A DNA stretch of 64,000 bases from contig BK006937.2 in assembly GCA_000146045.2 (NCBI GenBank), forward strand, positions 160,001 to 224,000. The letters are read 5' to 3'. The DNA comes from TPA_inf: Saccharomyces (lineage: Eukaryota). The first letter of the stretch is position 1, and every line of letters starts with the position of its first letter. Position numbers and translations under genes: made by a program. The notes below the pieces were generated by a model. That model saw only the letters and a program-made list of their open reading frames with translations. It was not told the DNA's origin and did not search any database. Positions 8,301 through 46,260 of the stretch are shown piece by piece.

Positions 8301-8372
8301 AGGTCCTACCCGGATTCGAACCGGGGTTGTCCGGATCAAAACCGAAAGTGATAACCACTACACTATAGGACC
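8301..8372 (-). tRNA. tQ(UUG)C: tRNA-Gln with anticodon UUG, 72 nt, no intron
   Basis: Reverse complement is GGTCCTATAGTGTAGTGGTTATCACTTTCGGTTTTGATCCGGACAACCCCGGTTCGAATCCGGGTAGGACC(T). It has a 7-bp acceptor stem, an A-box (TAGTGTAGTGG), a B-box (GGTTCGAATCC) and an anticodon loop TTTTGAT giving UUG. Confidence 0.93.
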
Positions 8373-8388
8373 AGGACTTCTTGTAATA

Positions 8389-9068
8389 TTTTGTATCTCA
8401 AAATGAGGTATGTCAGTATGACAATACGTCATCCTAAACGTTCATAAAACACATATGAAACAACCTTATAACAAAACGAACAACATGAGATAAAACCCGG
8501 CCTTCCCTAGCTGAACTACCCAAAAGTATAAATGCCTGAACAATTAGTTTAGATCCGAGATTCCGCGCTTCCACCACTTAGTATGATTCATATTTTATAT
8601 GAGAAATGGGTGAATGTTGAGATAATTGTTGGGATTCCATTGTTGATAAAGGCTATAATATTAGGTATACAGAATATACTAGAAGTTCTCCTCGAGGATT
8701 TAGGAATCCATAAAAGGGAATCTGCAATTCTACACAATTCTATAAATATTATTATCATCGTTTTATATGTTAATATTCATTGATCCTATTACATTATCAA
8801 TCCTTGCGTTTCAGCTTCCACTAATTTAGATGACTATTTCTCATCATTTGCGTCATCTTCTAACACCGTATATGATAATATACTAGTAACGTAAATACTA
8901 GTTAGTAGATGATAGTTGATTTTTATTCCAACATTATATAATATATAAGATAAGTAACATTCCGTGAATTAATCTGATAAACTGTTTTGACAACTGGTTA
9001 CTTCCCTAAGACTGTTTATATTAGGATTGTCAAGACACTCCGGTATTACTCGAGCCCGTAATACAACA
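8389..9068 (+). mobile_element. Solo Ty3 LTR (sigma element) of about 340 bp. It is interrupted at 8600-8933 by a Ty1/Ty2 delta insertion, leaving sigma parts at 8389-8599 and 8934-9068.
   Basis: It starts T(G/t)TTGTATCTCAAAATGAG...GTATGACAATACGTCA and ends ...CTCGAGCCCGTAATACAACA, which is the sigma sequence from memory. The sigma edge lies 17 bp from the mature 5' end of tRNA-Gln, the expected Ty3 Pol III-targeting distance. Confidence 0.85.
8600..8933 (-). mobile_element. Solo Ty1/Ty2 LTR (delta), 334 bp, inserted inside the sigma element
   Basis: Reverse complement begins TGTTGGAATAAAAATCAACTATCATCTACTAACTAGTATTTACG and ends GGAATCCCAACAATTATCTCAACATTCACCCATTTCTCA. It is flanked by a 5-bp target-site duplication, TTATA at 8595-8599 and again at 8934-8938. 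The intact sigma sequence is restored when the delta plus one TSD copy are removed. Confidence 0.88.
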
Positions 9069-9206: not shown

Positions 9207-9544
9207 TGTTGGAATAAAAATCCACTATCGTCTATCAACTAATAGTTATATTATCAATATATTATCATATACGGTGTTAAGATGATGACATAAGTTATGA
9301 GAAGCTGTCATCGATGTTAGAGGAAGCTGAAACGCAAGGATTGATAATGTAATAGGATCAATGAATATAAACATATAAAACGGAATGAGGAATAATCGTA
9401 ATATTAGTATGTAGAAATATAGATTCCATTTTGAGGATTCCTATATCCTCGAGGAGAACTTCTAGTATATTCTGTATACCTAATATTATAGCCTTTATCA
9501 ACAATGGAATCCCAACAATTATCTAATTACCCACACATTTCTCA
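9207..9544 (+). mobile_element. Solo delta LTR (Ty1/Ty2 type), 338 bp
   Basis: Starts TGTTGGAATAAAAATCCACTATCGTCTATCAACTAATAG. It contains GAAGCTGAAACGCAAGGATTGATAATGTAATAGGATCAATGAATAT and CCTCGAGGAGAACTTCTAGTATATTCTGTATACCTAATATTATAGCC. It ends CACATTTCTCA. Confidence 0.82.
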
Positions 9545-17174: not shown

Positions 17175-17290
17175 CAAAATTCTAAAATGATGATTTTTTT
17201 AAACACAATTTATGCTAGATAGTATCTGAAAGCATTCAAACTTTATGATTACAGTGTTTTCGACAGTTTTAAATCTCTGAACCGATTTTG
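17175..17290 (+). ncRNA. SNR65: Box C/D snoRNA candidate (rRNA 2'-O-methylation guide). The ends are approximate.
   Basis: C box AUGAUGA at 17187-17193, a D' box CUGA at 17226-17229, a C'-like UGAUUA at 17246-17251, and a D box CUGA at 17277-17280. A terminal stem is formed by CAAAAU (17175-17180) and AUUUUG (17285-17290). The snR65 name is from memory of a chrIII C/D snoRNA between SYP1 and RPS14A and is not verified. Confidence 0.5.
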
Positions 17291-18220: not shown

Positions 18221-19519
18221 GGCGGGTTCTTGTGGTTTCTTACTCTCCTTGGGTTTAAAATAGAATCTTCATTAAAAAGTGCTTTCTGTAATATATAGTG
18301 ATTAATAACCAATTCATTTCAACTGTCTACCTGAGGAAGCCCTGCACCATATGGAATGAGCCAGGAGGCGGGATGGTCTGCCGCAAGCAGACAAATTTGC
18401 CAAAATGCAGTAGAGAATGGCAATGCTCGTGCTGAAGGTGAAAAAAAGAACGCAAAAAAAAAGAGTAGTAAAATGTACAGATGTTTATTAAGTCCGTACA
18501 CCGCACGTAAGTACTCCAAAGCAGTCTCTATTACATTTTAAATAGGGAGAAAGAAGATACATAACAAGTATGAACAAGAACGATAATCAGTGAGTAACAA
18601 GAATAGAGATGTCAGGCCCGTGTGAAGTACTTGAAAGTAATAAGTGAGTATATAGAATATACCAGAACTTGTAAGCTTTCGAATAACAAAAAGAGCCATT
18701 TGTACTTATTCTCGAACTCGGTTGTAGAGAGGACGTTGCCTTGAAAGTCACAAATCCCCTACAATAATACCGGTCCTTGGAATGTAAATTATTTTGTTAA
18801 TTTTCTTATAAGTTCACAGTTGAAAAAACAACGGTCACAGTGAATCAATAAAAGAAGGATCTCACTTTATAAAGAAAAGAACAGGAAAAAAAAATGTATA
18901 TCTGGGTATATTACCCGGCCCTTGATAATATTTTTCAATAATTTTGCCAGGTAACAATGTGATTCATGCATGGCTTAAAGAAAATACATTGCTGAAGCAA
19001 AAGCTCACCAAAAATTTGCGTTGCAAAGCTTTGTTTGCGGTATGTTAATAAAGTTACCATGAAGCTTTTTTACTGCTCTCAGACCATAAAGACAGGAAGC
19101 AACTTGTCATATCTATTTCGACTTCAGCGGTTATTTTCTTCAGCCCATTGATAAGGCGATATATGCCTAGAAGAAAGGAAGAGTGCAGACTTGATAATAA
19201 AGCAAGACCAAGAGCAACTAAATAGACTAAAATATAGAGCCTTCCAAACTGTTAGTTATTATTACTTAATACTCGTACGGGTGATGAAGGTAGTGACTTT
19301 GTAATCCGGGTAATGGGGAAAATAAGAAGCCTTCAAAGCTATAGCATTTGTCCCTACTGCATCGGCCCCTTTCCAGTACAATAGAATCTCGTTGATGTGA
19401 TTACTGATTCAACTGACCCAAATAAATCATTTGAAGAACTCATAAAAGGACTATAGCAGCAAGAACTGCAAGCCAATTGGTTCTTTCTCCTTTCTGCCAA
19501 AAAAAAACACAATACGGAT

Positions 19520-37620: not shown

Positions 37621-39549
37621 TTAGGTAAGCCTTGGAACCTTAGCTATACTGACTTGATACGCCCTGTCTTTGTTGTCGTTATATAAAGTGTGCACCTTTA
37701 TCATAGCCCCTAATAAGCTTCTTGCAGTAGTATTTGAACAGTGTATATCTTCATATTGCTTTTGTTGTAAATATTGCGCAAAAGCGACTATCTTTGTGAT
37801 TTGGTTGAACTTTTGCATATTCACGTTATTACCATCTTTAGTGAATGTATCGTTTCCGTCTCTTATGAAGGTAATGTCCCTGATAAGCAGTGATGTAAAA
37901 GGTACACAAGGAAGCTGACTGTGGAAAATATGTTTAATTGTTCTTCTATAAACGTTGTAGTTGTTGTTTGGATGTACGACGACTTTTAGGCGCTGAAAAA
38001 GGTGGTCTGATTTAACATCTATCGGGAGAGATAGTCTTTCTATTGAATGATTTTGCAATGATGTAATGATTGAAGCAAGTGAGTTTAAGTTTCGTAAGTA
38101 TAGACAAGACAGTGCAACTTGTAACCAGTAGGAAATGGTGTGCGTTTGCTGCAAAGTTGTCTCAAGAACGTAGGACGATAACTGGTTGGAAAGCGTAAAC
38201 ACGGAGTCAATTGTTGTATCGTTGTGTTTGAAATGTCTTGTGAATTCTATTGTTTCAATATCCAAGTAAAGAGAAGATTCTAAGAGAGTCAATGTCTTTG
38301 CAAGTGACCATGGAGATACGTTTAGAGCGAAGGCTTCGACTTCTAGAAGTTCACCCTGTTTCCATTGGAAAAGTAAATCACTGAGGTCAGTTGCACCGCA
38401 CAATTCATCATTTGCGTTCGTTTTGTCTATCTCGTATTGGAGAAATAAGTTTTCGTAGTCCAGGGGCGGTTTATTTTCTTCGATTTCCTTATCAGTTAGA
38501 CCAATGTAATGAATCTTCAATTGCCTCGTTCTTTTTTTGTTTATAAACAGCTGAACTATGTCTGCAAACAGTTCTTGGTATTCATAATATTCAGCCAAGT
38601 GACTGTACCAAAAATTGAGGATATCTTTTAATGTTGTCTCACTATCTTGCCAATAAGACTCTACCCAGATTTGTATTAGACGAGGGACGGAGTGATTTTT
38701 GTGTTTGTTTTTATTAATTGTGGGATAGGATAGTAGCAACTCTTGGAGGAGAGCATTGTCAGTTGTCCAGTCTCTGAAGTTAAGTAGTAAGTTTGCGGAG
38801 TCAAAGGGGGATGGCTTTTGCCATTTGTGAGAGTTGTGCGGCAGCATCTTATTCAAATAGAGCTGTATTCTGAAGACCTCTTGTAGAACATCATCCATAC
38901 TAAAAAGTAAATCGTCCTGTCCCATTACGAGCTGTATTAGTGCTGTGACCCTCTGTATATTTACGTTGCCATGAAGAAGGTAATGGGCGATATTTTGATA
39001 CAATTCCTGAGTTGCATGTTGGATTGAGTTTACGAAGGGTCGCCAGACGGCCAGAAACCTCCAGGCGGAGTTAACAACTAGTAATACGGCATCCATGTTT
39101 GCATCAGCGCCGAGCCTATACCAGTCACTGAGTAGACGTTTTCTTGCTCTTTTTATGTCCTGACTTCTTTTGACGAGGGGGCATTCTCTAGAGACACAGG
39201 CAGTTGCTTCCAGCAACTGCCGTACGGCCGTTCTCATGCTGTCGAGGATTTTTTTTGGGACGATATTGTCATTATAGGGCAGTGTGTGACTTATGAATTG
39301 TTGTAGAAGGACGTCTGTGATGTTGGAGATATGTATTTTGTTAACTCTTCTTGAGACGATTTGGCCCTGGATAGCGAAGCGTGCGGTTACAAATAGGTCG
39401 TCTTGTTCAAGAAGGTAGGCGAGGACATTATCTATCAGTACAAACATCTTAGTAGTGTCTGAGGAGAGGGTTGATTGTTTATGTATTTTTGCGAAATATA
39501 TATATATATATTCTACACAGATATATACATATTTGTTTTTCGGGCTCAT
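37621..39549 (-). CDS. BUD5: Cdc25-family guanine nucleotide exchange factor for the Rsr1/Bud1 GTPase (bud-site selection), 642 aa. Its 5' part lies inside the MAT W/X region.
   Basis: 642-aa ORF with a C-terminal RasGEF (Cdc25 homology) domain. Its ATG at 39547-39549 overlaps the MATalpha2 stop codon at 39546-39548 (ATGA on the minus strand). Matches YCR038C. Confidence 0.87.
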
Positions 39550-40178
39550 TCTTTCTTCTTTGCCAGAGGCTCACCGCTCAAGAGGTCCGCTAATTCTGGA
39601 GCGATTGTTATTGTTTTTTCTTTTCTTCTTCTATTCGAAACCCAGTTTTTGATTTGAATGCGAGATAAACTGGTATTCTTCATTAGATTCTCTAGGCCCT
39701 TGGTATCTAGATATGGGTTCTCGATGTTCTTTGCAAACCAACTTTCTAGTATTCGGACATTTTCTTTTGTAAACCGGTGTCCTCTGTAAGGTTTAGTACT
39801 TTTGTTTATCATATCTTGAGTTACCACATTAAATACCAACCCATCCGCCGATTTATTTTTCTGTGTAAGTTGATAATTACTTCTATCGTTTTCTATGCTG
39901 CGCATTTCTTTGAGTAATACAGTAATGGTAGTAGTGAGTTGAGATGTTGTTTGCAACAACTTCTTCTCCTCATCACTAATCTTACGGTTTTTGTTGGCCC
40001 TAGATAAGAATCCTAATATATCCCTTAATTCAACTTCTTCTTCTGTTGTTACACTCTCTGGTAACTTAGGTAAATTACAGCAAATAGAAAAGAGCTTTTT
40101 ATTTATGTCTAGTATGCTGGATTTAAACTCATCTGTGATTTGTGGATTTAAAAGGTCTTTAATGGGTATTTTATTCAT
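39546..40178 (-). CDS. MATALPHA2: Homeodomain transcriptional repressor alpha2, 210 aa
   Basis: 210-aa [33 protein letters not shown]... with a homeodomain ([60 protein letters not shown]) and a C-terminal a1-interaction tail. Exact match to alpha2. Residues 92-210 (MRSIEND...) correspond to the a2 ORF and so lie in X. Confidence 0.96.
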
Positions 40179-40324
40179 TTTTTCTTGCTTATCTTCCTTT
40201 TTTTCTTGCCCACTTCTAAGCTGATTTCAATCTCTCCTTTATATATATTTTTAAGTTCCAACATTTTATGTTTCAAAACATTAATGATGTCTGGGTTTTG
40301 TTTGGGATGCAATTTATTGCTTCC

Positions 40325-40344
40325 CAATGTAGAAAAGTACATCA
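40325..40344. promoter_or_regulatory. a1-alpha2 (haploid-specific gene) operator in the MATalpha1/alpha2 divergent promoter
   Basis: The sequence CAATGTAGAAAAGTACATCA carries dyad half-sites ATGTA and TACAT separated as in the hsg operator consensus (CATGT-N-TACATCA). It lies about 100 bp upstream of the alpha1 ATG. I remember it as the site that shuts off alpha1 in a/alpha diploids. Confidence 0.5.
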
Positions 40345-40441
40345 TATGAAACAACTTAAACTCTTAACTACTTCTTTTAACCTTCACTTTTTATGAAATG
40401 TATCAACCATATATAATAACTTAATAGACGACATTCACAAT

Positions 40442-40969
40442 ATGTTTACTTCGAAGCCTGCTTTCAAAATTAAGAACAAAGCATCCAAATCATACAGAAA
40501 CACAGCGGTTTCAAAAAAGCTGAAAGAAAAACGTCTAGCTGAGCATGTGAGGCCAAGCTGCTTCAATATTATTCGACCACTCAAGAAAGATATCCAGATT
40601 CCTGTTCCTTCCTCTCGATTTTTAAATAAAATCCAAATTCACAGGATAGCGTCTGGAAGTCAAAATACTCAGTTTCGACAGTTCAATAAGACATCTATAA
40701 AATCTTCAAAGAAATATTTAAACTCATTTATGGCTTTTAGAGCATATTACTCACAGTTTGGCTCCGGTGTAAAACAAAATGTCTTGTCTTCTCTGCTCGC
40801 TGAAGAATGGCACGCGGACAAAATGCAGCACGGAATATGGGACTACTTCGCGCAACAGTATAATTTTATAAACCCTGGTTTTGGTTTTGTAGAGTGGTTG
40901 ACGAATAATTATGCTGAAGTACGTGGTGACGGATATTGGGAAGATGTGTTTGTACATTTGGCCTTATAG
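40442..40969 (+). CDS. MATALPHA1: Alpha-domain transcriptional co-activator alpha1, 175 aa
   Basis: 175-aa ORF MFTSKPAFKIKNKASKSYRNTAVSKKLKEKRLAEHVRP... is an exact match to alpha1. The ORF crosses the Yalpha/Z1 junction, with the last ~39 codons (about 120 nt incl. stop) in Z1. Confidence 0.96.
   Translation: MFTSKPAFKIKNKASKSYRNTAVSKKLKEKRLAEHVRPSCFNIIRPLKKDIQIPVPSSRFLNKIQIHRIASGSQNTQFRQFNKTSIKSSKKYLNSFMAFRAYYSQFGSGVKQNVLSSLLAEEWHADKMQHGIWDYFAQQYNFINPGFGFVEWLTNNYAEVRGDGYWEDVFVHLAL
40843..40866. other. HO endonuclease recognition and cleavage site at the Yalpha/Z1 border
   Basis: ACTTCGCGCAACAGTATAATTTTATAAACCCTGG contains the conserved Z1-side HO core CGCAACAGTATAATTTTATAAA. HO cuts within CGCAACA|GTA and leaves 4-nt 3' overhangs. 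The site is embedded in alpha1 codons (...YFAQQYNFINPG). Confidence 0.8.
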
Positions 40970-41243
40970 AGTGTGGTCGTGGCGGAGGTTGTTTATCTTT
41001 CGAGTACTGAATGTTGTCAGTATAGCTATCCTATTTGAAACTCCCCATCGTCTTGCTCTTGTTCCCAATGTTTGTTTATACACTCATATGGCTATACCCT
41101 TATCTACTTGCCTCTTTTGTTTATGTCTATGTATTTGTATAAAATATGATATTACTCAGACTCAAGCAAACAATCAATTCTTAGCATCATTCTTTGTTCT
41201 TATCTTAACCATAAACGATCTTGATGTGACTTTTGTAATTTGA
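40911..41243 (+). CDS. YCR041W: Dubious 110-aa ORF spanning Z1/Z2. It overlaps the alpha1 3' end and the TAF2 3' end.
   Basis: ORF in the track only. It is Cys/Leu-rich, has no domain and overlaps two real genes. Confidence 0.1.
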   Translation: MLKYVVTDIGKMCLYIWPYRVWSWRRLFIFRVLNVVSIAILFETPHRLALVPNVCLYTHMAIPLSTCLFCLCLCICIKYDITQTQANNQFLASFFVLILTINDLDVTFVI

Positions 41244-44200
41244 ACGAATTGGCTATACGGGACGGATGACAAATGCACCATTACTCTAGGTTGTTGTTGG
41301 ATCTTAACAAACCGTAAAGGTAAACTGCCCATGCGGTTCACATGACTTTTGACTTTCCTTTGTTTGCTAGTTACCTTCGGCTTCACAATTTGTTTTTCCA
41401 CTTTTCTAACAGGTTTATCACCTTTCAAACTTATCTTTATCTTATTCGCCTTCTTGGGTGCCTCCACAGTAGAGGTTACTTCCTTTTTAATATGTACTTT
41501 TAGGATACTTTCACGCTTTATAACAATATCAAGTTTACCTTCTTCATTACTATTCATCTTCGCCACAAGTCTTCTCTCCCTTGGTGTTTCCAATCTAACT
41601 ACAAAACTGTTGATTAGGGTGTACATCACCCTAACAAGATCATGTATTTGCTTCCTCTGGTACAAGCTAAGAACAGGTAAATTCAAAACATCCCAGAGTA
41701 ATATCTTCAAAGGGCTATACCCTTTAAACATATCTCGGCATATTTGTATTAACCCACTAATATTTTGACGGCCAATCTTTTCTATTTTTATTTTCATATC
41801 ATCGACGTAATGACCACTTAAAAACAACTCAATATCATCCTCACTTTTTATATTTTTAACTTCATTGTGCACAGATTGGACGGAGGACTTAATATCGTCA
41901 CTTATGGTATCCAAACTACCATCCATAACAACTAGATTTACACATTCAGAAAGCACATCAACACTTTTATCCCTAATATAAGAATCCTCATGGAAGCAAA
42001 GTATTTCAGTAAACAAAACAAGGGCATCCTTGTTTTTTAAACCACCTTCTAAAAGCATGATTTTCAAAACCATTAAAAACTCATTCTGAAAGCTTTCCCT
42101 GGAAATATCTCCGTTATTTATACCTAATGTTAATGTATGCATTATCATTCCTGTCAATTCCGTAAAGTCATAAGCACCCACTTTATGCAATTTGTACTTA
42201 GCATACATGATAGTAGTCTTAATCAAAGACTCGTATGATGAAAGCCAATTCACCAAATTTTCGTACCTCAATAACTGAGTCTTAACTTTTTCCATATATG
42301 CTTTATCTTTATACTCATTTAAAGCAACTTTAACAACATTTTCAATCAAGCTGCGGACGTACGCATCATCACTGTATTTATTTTCACCATTCTCATTATA
42401 AACAAGAATATCCAGTAAAAATTGCTTCACCAATTTTGGACATTTACCATTTTCATTTTTCACTTTAGCCAAATATTTGGGAATATTACACTGTAAGAAA
42501 TACAACTTAGGATTCTCAAAGTTATTACTCTTTGGAATATTAGAGTCTTCTAGGCAAAACAAAATCTGAAAAATCTGAATTAAATGCTTAACACCGCCAG
42601 TAAAATCCGGATCATATACGTATTTACTAAGCGCTTCGCACGCCGCGAGTCTTATGCCAAAAAAGTAACGCTCGTCGATCGCCGTTCTAAACAAAATACT
42701 TGAATAAACAAGTGATTTCACACCACCATTAACAACGACGTCCTCATAATATCGTATGGCTTCTAGTTGGGCCTCTATGTCCCCATCTTGTCTCAACTGA
42801 GAAGAAAACATGTAATCCGGCTGATTAATGTGCATTTGGCAAATCCATTCCAGATCAGAGTCTATGCGTATCCACTCAAATGCTTCGTTTTGCTTAAGCA
42901 ATTCATTACTCTCAGACGTACGATTAAATTCCGTCAAACTGAATCGGGAACACTCTTCGGGCGACATGTATACATTTCCTAGACAATTCACATCCACAAC
43001 AATAGGCTTCTCCTCATTATTGTTTTCAACACCATTTTCATCATTTGCACCACCACCTCTTTTCCTTAATCTTCTGTACTTTGTATTGTACTGAATATCT
43101 ATTTTTGTGAATGTATCTTTGATTTCCACAATATGCTCATACGGAGTACCATCGTGTTCATGGATCCTTATAGTCATCGAGCCCGTGAAGCATTCGGTTC
43201 GGTTCAAATCTGGATGTTCTAAGTGGTCTAGTGCACTTTTGAAAAATCCTTCCTCCCCTACCACTTTTTCGTGGCCAAGTTCTTCATCTTGAACTTGCCT
43301 TATACCCAGTTCTATAACCATCCTCTTCCTATTAAATCTTTGGGTGACACGTAATATGGGTACCCCAGACCCATATACCCATTCGTTGAAAAAATTCTCT
43401 AATTTACTTTTATTAACTCTTTCGCAAACATGTTGAAAATGCGATGAAGTCAACGAATTATTCGGTAAATCACCAGACATAGCTTGAAGGAAAATTTTAG
43501 GTAATACTCGAGACATACCGAAAGATCGTTCTGTTTTAGTCATCCTTCTGTCAAGTATGTGTAGTATCATCGGTGCCTTCAATTGTATAAAGGACAAATC
43601 TTTAGAAGACCAAGATATTGGCCTAGAACTGCCGGTAAAAGTGCTCCCAATAGGCGGTTTCTCGAAGTCTTGTTCCACAATCGCCTCACTATTACGCTTT
43701 AATTGATATTTATACGTGTTATTACCCATTAATTTTTTGGTTACCTGAAACACCATATAACCAGCAATACCAAGACAGCACCAGTAGTCGTTCATATCTA
43801 AAGGAGTTATATTCACACAAGACCATTGGTTAGCAAGTGCCCATGCTAACTCATTCGTAGTACTGAATGCTTTATCAATAACTTCTAGAGGGTACAATAA
43901 TCTGGTATTACAAATGCCTAATGCTGCAAAATCCATATGCTTAGAAGGTGCGGTAGGTAAAAACACCATAGAGTAACAAGTGAAAGGATAAGACCCAAAT
44001 TCTTTCGAGTAGAAATCTATAATTTTTTGGCAGACAACTGTCGAATTTATAACTGTTAACTCATCTGTTTCCTGCGTCGGAAGTGTGAAAATTTGAATGG
44101 GTATAATATCCGAACCAATGTCGTCATCCATAGTATCGTTAACATTGTCCACAACATTCTCTCTCAACTTGTCTTCCTCTACTTCGTCCTCGGCATCAAC

Positions 44201-45397
44201 ACTTGGAGGTGATATCAAAGGTAAAGACCATGAATTAAAGGCGCCTATAGCCCAACCAATGTGATGTGGAGCCACAGGATTAATTATCTGAAATATGCAT
44301 TTTTTTTTCGTCAAATCAATCGGGTGCGGAAGTTCTTTAATATTTGAATATTCTGAACAACACACAATCACATCCCTCAAACTCGGATTGTTGCTTTCCT
44401 CAATATTCCGCCTTTCCTCTTCCCCTTCCTCTTCCTCTTCGTCACTTTCGCCTTCCTCTTCTTCTTCATCATTATCTTGTGCATCTTTGCTTTTACTATT
44501 TTTGCCTTCTTCGTCATTTTTCAAGTTAGAATCCTTATCTTCGTCTTTGATAACTCTTGCCGGCTTCCCCTCTTCCTCTTCATCGTGCTCAGGCGTATCC
44601 TCCTTCTCTTTTTCACTCTCTTCTCCATTTTGTCCGATTAATTTCGAAGTACCTATATTTTTAACCAATCTCGGTACGCTGAATTCTAACTCCCATGTAG
44701 ATTTTTCATCAAGCAAATCGACACATGGGACCCAATATGATGCAGAACTGCAAATCTCACCATTTGAAGTGTAAACGTTCCATAACCAGGGCTTGTCAGC
44801 ATACACAGTATCGAATTTAATACCCGACTTTGGGTTTCTGATTTCATATTCAATTTGTAATGTAATTGGAGTGAAAACAGATTCTTGAAACCCAGGGGTA
44901 GTCTTAATTGAAGGAGTAATCGGAGTGTAATTACTTAATGCATTGGCGTCCTCCAAAGATATTTTGATGGAAGATGGTATTTTTATAGTTAACTGGGATT
45001 TAGAGTCCGTTTCTGGGTATTCATTCAAGCTAGCAAACTTAGATCTCAAAAAATGTGACTGTTCAATGGAATTGTCGCTGTATAATACATTTTGTGAAGT
45101 CAATCCATTCAAATTTGTTTGAAGTGGGTCGTCATGAATAAATTGATCACATCGACGATTTTCGACCAGAACATCTTTAATAGTCATTTCCTTGCAATCA
45201 AAAGTTACATATTCTAGGTTTTGGATCAACGGAATGATTATTATAGTAGCGCTACCGGTAATGCAGTGAGTAGCTAGATCTATATCCAACGAGATTTTTT
45301 CATGGGCAACTCTAAAATTTCTAAACTTCATCTCATGCAAAGTGCTAGATTCACTAACAATGGCTCTAGGAGTGGCGTTTTTGGAAAAGGACATCAT
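41174..45397 (-). CDS. TAF2: TFIID subunit TAF2 (M1-aminopeptidase-like fold), 1407 aa
   Basis: The ORF extends to 45406 (MDFMMSF...). The start is placed at the 4th codon (MMSFSKNATPRAIV) to give 1407 aa. There is a long acidic Glu/Asp/Ser-rich insert (KDAQDNDEEEEEGESDEEEEEGEEERR). Matches YCR042C. Confidence 0.9.
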   Translation of the reverse strand: MMSFSKNATPRAIVSESSTLHEMKFRNFRVAHEKISLDIDLATHCITGSATIIIIPLIQNLEYVTFDCKEMTIKDVLVENRRCDQFIHDDPLQTNLNGLTSQNVLYSDNSIEQSHFLRSKFASLNEYPETDSKSQLTIKIPSSIKISLEDANALSNYTPITPSIKTTPGFQESVFTPITLQIEYEIRNPKSGIKFDTVYADKPWLWNVYTSNGEICSSASYWVPCVDLLDEKSTWELEFSVPRLVKNIGTSKLIGQNGEESEKEKEDTPEHDEEEEGKPARVIKDEDKDSNLKNDEEGKNSKSKDAQDNDEEEEEGESDEEEEEGEEERRNIEESNNPSLRDVIVCCSEYSNIKELPHPIDLTKKKCIFQIINPVAPHHIGWAIGAFNSWSLPLISPPSVDAEDEVEEDKLRENVVDNVNDTMDDDIGSDIIPIQIFTLPTQETDELTVINSTVVCQKIIDFYSKEFGSYPFTCYSMVFLPTAPSKHMDFAALGICNTRLLYPLEVIDKAFSTTNELAWALANQWSCVNITPLDMNDYWCCLGIAGYMVFQVTKKLMGNNTYKYQLKRNSEAIVEQDFEKPPIGSTFTGSSRPISWSSKDLSFIQLKAPMILHILDRRMTKTERSFGMSRVLPKIFLQAMSGDLPNNSLTSSHFQHVCERVNKSKLENFFNEWVYGSGVPILRVTQRFNRKRMVIELGIRQVQDEELGHEKVVGEEGFFKSALDHLEHPDLNRTECFTGSMTIRIHEHDGTPYEHIVEIKDTFTKIDIQYNTKYRRLRKRGGGANDENGVENNNEEKPIVVDVNCLGNVYMSPEECSRFSLTEFNRTSESNELLKQNEAFEWIRIDSDLEWICQMHINQPDYMFSSQLRQDGDIEAQLEAIRYYEDVVVNGGVKSLVYSSILFRTAIDERYFFGIRLAACEALSKYVYDPDFTGGVKHLIQIFQILFCLEDSNIPKSNNFENPKLYFLQCNIPKYLAKVKNENGKCPKLVKQFLLDILVYNENGENKYSDDAYVRSLIENVVKVALNEYKDKAYMEKVKTQLLRYENLVNWLSSYESLIKTTIMYAKYKLHKVGAYDFTELTGMIMHTLTLGINNGDISRESFQNEFLMVLKIMLLEGGLKNKDALVLFTEILCFHEDSYIRDKSVDVLSECVNLVVMDGSLDTISDDIKSSVQSVHNEVKNIKSEDDIELFLSGHYVDDMKIKIEKIGRQNISGLIQICRDMFKGYSPLKILLWDVLNLPVLSLYQRKQIHDLVRVMYTLINSFVVRLETPRERRLVAKMNSNEEGKLDIVIKRESILKVHIKKEVTSTVEAPKKANKIKISLKGDKPVRKVEKQIVKPKVTSKQRKVKSHVNRMGSLPLRFVKIQQQPRVMVHLSSVPYSQFVQITKVTSRSFMVKIRTKNDAKN

Positions 45398-46260
45398 GAA
45401 GTCCACCTATTTATCCTGTTGTCACCTCTTCACTGTCCAAAACTTCATCAAAAAATACTTTTACATCCGTTCCATTTTACTATAGTTTTCATCTTACGCA
45501 ATTTACCAATTGCCCCATTCGGCAAAAGTATTTAAGTGTTACCCGGTTACTTAAGGTAATACCAAAAATATTCACTATATTGAAAGTTCTATGTATTTTA
45601 TTGAATTAAATAAGACTGATTTTGTAGCACGATATCCGCAAGAATGATTCACAACCATTTTAGATGTCTGCAGCTTTTTTTTTTTTGATTTTTTTACTAA
45701 TTTTAGTGCGATTTTAGAATAACTCTTGGATTAAATAAATAAAAAAAATACAATTATCACTCAGATTTTGAAGCAATCTGATAAAAATTGCAGCATATTA
45801 TTATAACAATTCTAGTTCACTACAAACAGCACATTATCAAGAAACTTATGTTTGATGGACAGTTTCTTCAAATAATTGAATGCAGTAAAAAATAAAAAAA
45901 ATAACCATGGAATATGTTTCTAAGAATTCGCAATCCTTGTTTATATAACTATAGCTTTTTTTATGTTATAAGAAAACATTTATTCCTTTAACCAAAAGGA
46001 AAAAGGTAACAACCCCACTTACCCCTCTGTCAATAGTTAATCATTTTATTATTTTCAACTTTAAACATCCAAAAAAAATAAAATAAATTAAATTAAAATC
46101 AAATAGAAAATGCATTATTACTATAATAATATCTCTATGTAGACATATACATATTATTTCATTGCTTTTTGTAATAAACGAGGAAAATGGTGGGATAAAA
46201 AAATGCATTGTTATTCCTTCGAAACCAGCAGTAATAAGTCGTCCTGAGAACGATGTAGAT

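Follow-up and report, generated by a model that had tools for sequence, protein, structure and literature searches.

The MATalpha mating-type locus between BUD5 and TAF2 in an S288C-like Saccharomyces cerevisiae sequence: block structure, silent copies and flanking genes

Conversion of an expressed mating-type cassette from silent donors is the logic common to Saccharomyces cerevisiae, Candida glabrata (MAT/HML/HMR with Ho) and Schizosaccharomyces pombe (mat1/mat2/mat3), and in all three of them switching relies on short flanking homology boxes and a site-specific break. The systems of C. glabrata and S. pombe differ from that of S. cerevisiae in their sequences, boxes and break mechanisms, and are likened to it here by description only. 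The closest described loci are MATalpha on chromosome III of S. cerevisiae S288C (MATALPHA1/YCR040W and MATALPHA2/YCR039C), the silent cassettes HMLalpha and HMRa and the alternative allele MATa. Here, we analyzed a stretch of 64,000 nucleotides (nt) of Saccharomyces DNA (contig BK006937.2, positions 160,001 to 224,000 of the forward strand; henceforth the window, in whose own numbering all positions are given), in which positions 38671-41177 almost certainly hold the mating-type locus of S. cerevisiae with its expressed MATalpha allele, in a sequence like that of S288C.

The locus in the window had the same genes, proteins, BUD5/TAF2 flanks, homology blocks and HO site as S. cerevisiae S288C MATalpha, from which no differences were detected. 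With HMLalpha it had the same 2507-bp W-X-Yalpha-Z1-Z2 sequence in common, but HMLalpha occupies a different chromosomal position with different flanks and contains only a truncated 5' copy of BUD5; in the literature, HML is described as lying between the E and I silencers and as being neither transcribed nor cut. MATa and HMRa carried an identical X block, a matching Z1 block (239/239 in MATa, 236-237/239 in HMRa) and, at the HO site, the same Z1 half, with MATa also having W, Z2 and the flanks in common with the window. Their Y block, however, is unrelated and 642-643 bp long, and it encodes the a1 homeodomain protein instead of alpha1 and the N-terminus of alpha2.

Block structure of the cassette and its copies

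The HML copy L004 aligned with window positions 38671-41177 end to end, over 2507 bp and at 99.96% identity, with one mismatch, at 40753, which was synonymous (third position of alpha1 codon 104). When the HML copies were compared in register, 1-5 differences were observed in the 2507 bp (99.8-99.96% identity), and the sequence directly outside these limits was unrelated to the HML flanks. HMR similarity was confined to two segments, 39401-40103 (703/703) and 40851-41089 (236-237/239); since HMR thus has only the two inner blocks in common with the window, the internal block borders are fixed (Table 1). In particular, identity of both HMRa and MATa to the window ended after 40103, at the X/Y border. 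The textbook sizes of the blocks are 747 bp for Yalpha, 642 bp for Ya, 239 bp for Z1 and 88 bp for Z2; the sizes measured for Y, Z1 and Z2 were equal to these values, and those of W and X were within a few bases of theirs. The same relationships were observed within a single genome, GCA_000976425.2, in which MAT and HML aligned over 2507 bp at 99.92% identity, while MAT and HMR had 703 bp of X at 100% and Z1 at ~98%. These block similarities are far beyond chance. A search for a second copy of the cassette within the 64-kb window found none.

The loci used for these comparisons were retrieved by several look-ups. That of the alpha1 protein returned two loci per chromosome in five strains, one of them (MAT) at ~190-200 kb between BUD5 and TAF2, and the other (HML) at ~7-24 kb, with an MFS transporter gene on one side and a PALP (CHA1-like) gene on the other. 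The HMRa loci were retrieved via a 119-amino acid (aa) open reading frame (ORF), the a2 frame, which is nested in the C-terminus of alpha2. These loci were situated towards the chromosome's right end and in each case adjoined a homeodomain gene or gene fragment of 113-155 aa, which in most of them was 126 aa long, i.e., a1-sized. The TAF2 look-up yielded the MATa alleles L021-L024, as well as another MATalpha allele, L025.

Compared with L025, the window differed in 1 base in 11.8 kb, with Yalpha, Z1 and Z2 being 100% identical. More generally, it was colinear with, and at least 99.8% identical over ~12 kb to, three independent MATalpha assemblies (L002, L003, L025). In the four MATa alleles, identity extended up to 40103 and resumed at Z1, and the flanks were >99.7% identical. 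The Ya block in between measured 643 bp in L021, compared with 642 bp in HMRa. Global alignment of Yalpha with Ya gave a score of 0, compared with 3.4 +/- 8.1 for shuffled sequences, and word matches of 8-13 nt only.

An earlier note on this DNA had described a complete W-X-Yalpha-Z1-Z2 MATalpha cassette between BUD5 and TAF2, in which HML would match all blocks and HMR only X and Z1, and where a MATa strain would carry a completely different Y block of ~650 bp. All five blocks indeed aligned to HML, the ends that it had placed at 38671 and 41177 proved to be the exact start and stop of HML similarity, HMR had only X and Z1, Yalpha was not present in HMRa, and the Y block of MATa strains (642-643 bp) was dissimilar to Yalpha. 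The description of the locus as well known rather than novel likewise agrees with the exact known proteins, the flanks and the order and sizes of the blocks.

Two further loci retrieved via the a2 frame, L011 (GCA_029989845.1) and L019 (GCA_947370715.1), were considered as MATa alleles and discarded, as their Y block looks like a blend of Ya and Yalpha. Yalpha and Ya each matched this block at 71-79% identity, in stretches that overlapped; it measured 739 bp in L011 and had no clean limits in L019, and mismatches and indels were confined to Y (approximately window positions 40000-41000). Most likely, both represent a blended consensus from collapsed a/alpha diploid assemblies, that is, a database artefact.

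Table 1. Coordinates of the MATalpha cassette, its genes and sites, and the flanking genes in the window.
Feature	Position	Strand	Observations
BUD5 (RasGEF), 642-aa annotation	37621..39549	-	5' 879 nt in the cassette (X 149 nt + W 730 nt); exact match to NP_009967.2
W block, 730 bp	38671..39400	.	In HML only, 728-730/730 (in register); HMR similarity starts at 39401
X block, 703 bp	39401..40103	.	In HML and HMR; 703/703 to HMR L012, L013, L015, L020 and to HML L004
MATalpha2 ORF, 210 aa, homeodomain repressor	39546..40178	-	Intact; 75 nt in Yalpha (start), 558 nt in X (end)
Nested 119-aa ORF, 'a2' reading frame	39546..39905	-	Wholly in X; in all three cassettes
Yalpha block, 747 bp	40104..40850	.	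Allele-specific; 746-747/747 to HML; 642-643 bp Ya in HMRa/MATa
Divergent intergenic promoter region (predicted), 263 bp	40179..40441	.	From alpha2 to alpha1 start codon; TATA-like runs, operator-like and Rap1-like sites
Rap1-like site AAACCCAGACATC	40286..40298	-	Candidate; two mismatches to ACACCCRYACAYM
a1-alpha2 (haploid-specific gene) operator-like site TGTAGAAAAGTACATCA	40328..40344	+	Putative; sole perfect match to TGTNNWNANNTACATCA in the 64-kb window
MATalpha1 ORF, 175 aa, alpha-box (HMG-like) co-activator	40442..40969	+	Intact; 409 nt in Yalpha, 119 nt in Z1; includes the HO site
HO recognition region over the Yalpha/Z1 junction	40847..40878	+	TTCGCGCAACAGTATAATTTTATAAACCCTGG; unique in the window; same in other MATalpha/HML copies
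Z1 block, 239 bp	40851..41089	.	HMR 236-237/239, HML 238-239/239, MATa 239/239; HMR similarity lost after 41089
Z2 block, 88 bp	41090..41177	.	HML only, 88/88; HMR 34-35/88, i.e., unrelated; HML identity ends after 41177
TAF2, 1407 aa	41174..45397	-	4 nt in Z2 (stop codon + 1 nt); abuts Z2

Mating-type genes, HO site and divergent region

With regard to the products of the two divergent genes, alpha1 matched the Pfam family MATalpha_HMGbox (9.8e-14) and was an exact match to the S288C 'transcriptional co-activator mating type protein alpha', HMAL1_YEAST (MATalpha1/HMLalpha1). For alpha2, Pfam matches to Homeodomain (4.7e-9) and Homeobox_KN were obtained, and the exact-sequence look-up returned S. 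cerevisiae alpha2. Residues 103-189 of alpha2 were identical to PDB 1mnm_C, and the entries 1akh, 1apl, 1yrn, 1le8 and 1k61 matched as well, with the depositor names of these entries being MAT alpha-2 repressor or homeodomain. Many assemblies annotate the exact 119-aa product of the nested a2 frame as a gene, both at HMRa and at MATa. A further ORF, of 110 aa (40911-41243, + strand), extends across Z1 and Z2, from the end of alpha1 and reaching into the 3' end of TAF2, which is encoded on the other strand. One assembly, L022, lists this ORF as a gene without recording a family match, and it is probably spurious.

The HO core CGCAACAGTATA, at 40851-40862, begins at base 1 of Z1, occurs a single time in the window and lies inside the alpha1 ORF. 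The Z1 side of the site did not vary among the 25 cassettes with a match to the 28-nt core (25/25; HML, HMR, MATa and MATalpha), and on the Y side the sequence was either …GGGACTACTTCG (alpha form) or …GTTTCAGCTTTC (a form). HO cuts within Z1, close to where Y and Z meet (PMC6420890, PMC5765346). Cleavage by HO at this particular locus is predicted, as are its expression and the DNA binding of its products.

The genes bore out what the earlier note had proposed for them, namely two divergent ORFs running out of Yalpha, alpha1 into Z1 and alpha2 into X, which was confirmed by their overlap with the blocks; both were free of frameshifts. The term 'HO-switchable' used there holds for the cis-acting part, i.e., the intact HO site; the ability of the strain to switch depends on its HO gene, which is located outside the window. 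Laboratory strains of the S288C type carry a defective ho allele.

That the 263 bp separating the two start codons act as a divergent promoter is a prediction taken from the literature. The consensus used for the a1-alpha2 operator-like site reportedly goes back to Miller et al. in 1985. An alternative operator spacing, CATGT-N9-ACATCA, missed the site when the window was scanned and gave 23 matches, compared with 23 expected. Directly upstream of the alpha2 start codon (40178-40216), we also observed an imperfect, pyrimidine-rich tandem duplication of 21 bp, TTTTTTCTTGCCCATCTTCCT, present in 1.9 copies.

Alternative readings and proposed mechanism

Three other explanations of the locus were weighed against its assignment as an expressed MATalpha allele. 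Given that the cassette is 99.8-99.96% identical to the HML copies, its sequence alone cannot separate MAT from HML, and the locus might represent a silent HMLalpha cassette rather than an expressed MAT. The surroundings, however, are those of the mid-chromosome arrangement (~190-200 kb), with the cassette being embedded in BUD5, abutting TAF2 and having PHO87-like and PER1-like genes beyond, whereas the HML copies are found at ~7-24 kb between MFS transporter and PALP (CHA1-like) genes, and the sequence outside 38671-41177 is unrelated to their flanks. The flanking genes thus refute the assignment to HML, which we consider extremely unlikely. The block structure as such could also have arisen from chance similarity or from an assembly error, and some public assemblies do have a blended, artefactual Y block at MAT (L011, L019). 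This has next to no probability and is already refuted by the colinearity and identity of at least 99.8% over ~12 kb with L002, L003 and L025, the last of which differs in 1 base in 11.8 kb, as well as by borders that give the textbook sizes of Y, Z1 and Z2 (747, 239 and 88 bp). A defective MATalpha allele, in which mutated genes or an HO site that resists cutting would give a sterile, 'inc' or 'stk' type, is in turn very unlikely: although sequence alone cannot prove function, alpha1 and alpha2 exactly match the common S. cerevisiae proteins, the Y/Z junction is the same as in every other retrieved MATalpha and HML copy, and Yalpha, Z1 and Z2 do not differ from those of MATalpha L025.

Two points limit the evidence for the assignment to MATalpha. 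On the one hand, the donor comparison drew on HML and HMR of other S. cerevisiae genomes (HML, HMR and HO are outside the window). On the other hand, the Rap1-like site at 40286-40298, which according to the literature would be the upstream activating sequence of MATalpha, was not distinguishable from chance, with 7 such sites found in the window against 8.8 expected, and is therefore not counted as evidence. All the features defining the S. cerevisiae MATalpha locus that can be tested in a sequence were found in the window, and none of the sequence evidence contradicted the MATalpha assignment. The window appears to hold the reference-type MATalpha sequence itself. The locus is already known, textbook and intact, and no new biology is added.

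The steps by which this MATalpha locus would act are drawn from the literature and established knowledge, while the anatomy, the copy relationship to HML and HMR, the allelism with Ya, the intact genes and the HO site were directly observed here. Together with Mcm1, alpha1 would activate alpha-specific genes and alpha2 would repress a-specific genes; in diploids, a1-alpha2 would repress haploid-specific genes, with alpha1 itself being included via the operator-like site at 40328-40344. In HO strains, the endonuclease would cut in Z1 close to the Y/Z border, and the resected Z1 end would invade HMRa, the donor favoured in alpha cells. Ya would then be copied, synthesis and repair would end in X/W, and the locus would become MATa. 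HML and HMR would be neither cut nor transcribed because of Sir-dependent heterochromatin that nucleates at the E and I silencers on either side of them; as MAT is without these silencers, it would be expressed and cleavable.

For de novo annotation, positions 38671-41177 should be labelled as MATalpha, with the five homology blocks and the HO site, and annotators should expect an unrelated Ya block at this position in other strains. The near-identical 2.5-kb copy (HML) and the two partial copies (HMR) on the same chromosome cause problems in read mapping and assembly.

BUD5, TAF2 and other features of the window

According to the earlier note, BUD5 and TAF2, which it terms essential and housekeeping genes, overlap the homology blocks. 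The overlap is substantial for BUD5, which extends over W and X for up to 879 nt, but amounts to merely 4 nt of Z2 in the case of TAF2. With regard to essentiality, it is general knowledge that TAF2 is essential and that BUD5 is not.

The ATG of the 642-aa BUD5 overlaps the alpha2 stop codon (ATGA), and almost half of the gene is duplicated at HML, where the truncated copy is annotated as a 260-aa ORF. Within X, a (TA)n run at 39497-39512, which corresponds to codons 13-18 of the 642-aa form, comprised 7, 8 or 9 units among strains, in a comparison that included L005, L006, L009, L010, L016, L017 and L023. With 7 or 9 units, a frameshift arises within the first 34 codons of this form, which leads to a stop at codon 23 or 39. 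BUD5 was then not annotated, as at the MAT loci L005, L009 and L023, and other annotations give a BUD5 of 608 aa (ATG at 39447) or 538 aa (ATG at 39237). Since the (TA)n frameshifts affect the N-terminus of the 642-aa form, the real start is probably downstream. The ATG at 39447, which gives 608 aa, is probably the true start, in which case the 642-aa form would be over-extended and its ATGA overlap with alpha2 an annotation artefact; if initiation does occur at 39447 and not at 39549, the overlap between BUD5 and alpha2 disappears.

Alternatively, the (TA)n tract might toggle an N-terminally extended Bud5 isoform, with gene conversion carrying it from one of the three cassettes to another. 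We regard this as improbable, and the downstream start as the more likely of the two explanations. The number of (TA)n units was equal across the cassettes of one genome, with 8/8/8 in MAT, HML and HMR of GCA_000976425.2, and 9/9 in MAT and HML of GCA_000976215.2 and, likewise, of GCA_000977385.2. This equality within genomes is a further sign of ongoing templated copying (concerted evolution), as gene conversion would predict, and speaks for the assignment to MATalpha.

On the other side of the cassette, the ORF at 41174-45406 (- strand) carries TAF2 domains, and PHO87-like and PER1-like genes were found beyond the BUD5 and TAF2 flanks. TAF2 contains a long, acidic, low-complexity insert rich in Glu, Asp and Lys at 44295-44774 (codons ~270-350). 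This insert includes a 27-bp imperfect tandem repeat, with an array detected by TRF at 44420-44471. The length of TAF2 differs among strains (1405 vs 1407 aa).

Further away from the mating-type locus, a tRNA-Gln(UUG) gene was located at 8301-8372 (- strand), beside a pair of inverted repeats of ~330 bp, with arms at 8600-8933 and 9207-9544 that were 85-87% complementary. Because of their size and their position next to the tRNA gene, these repeats are probably two diverged solo long terminal repeats of Ty elements in opposite orientation. Finally, full-length Rfam matches were obtained for two snoRNA genes, snR65 at 17183-17282 (+ strand, 125 bits) and snR189 at 18607-18798 (- strand, 238 bits).

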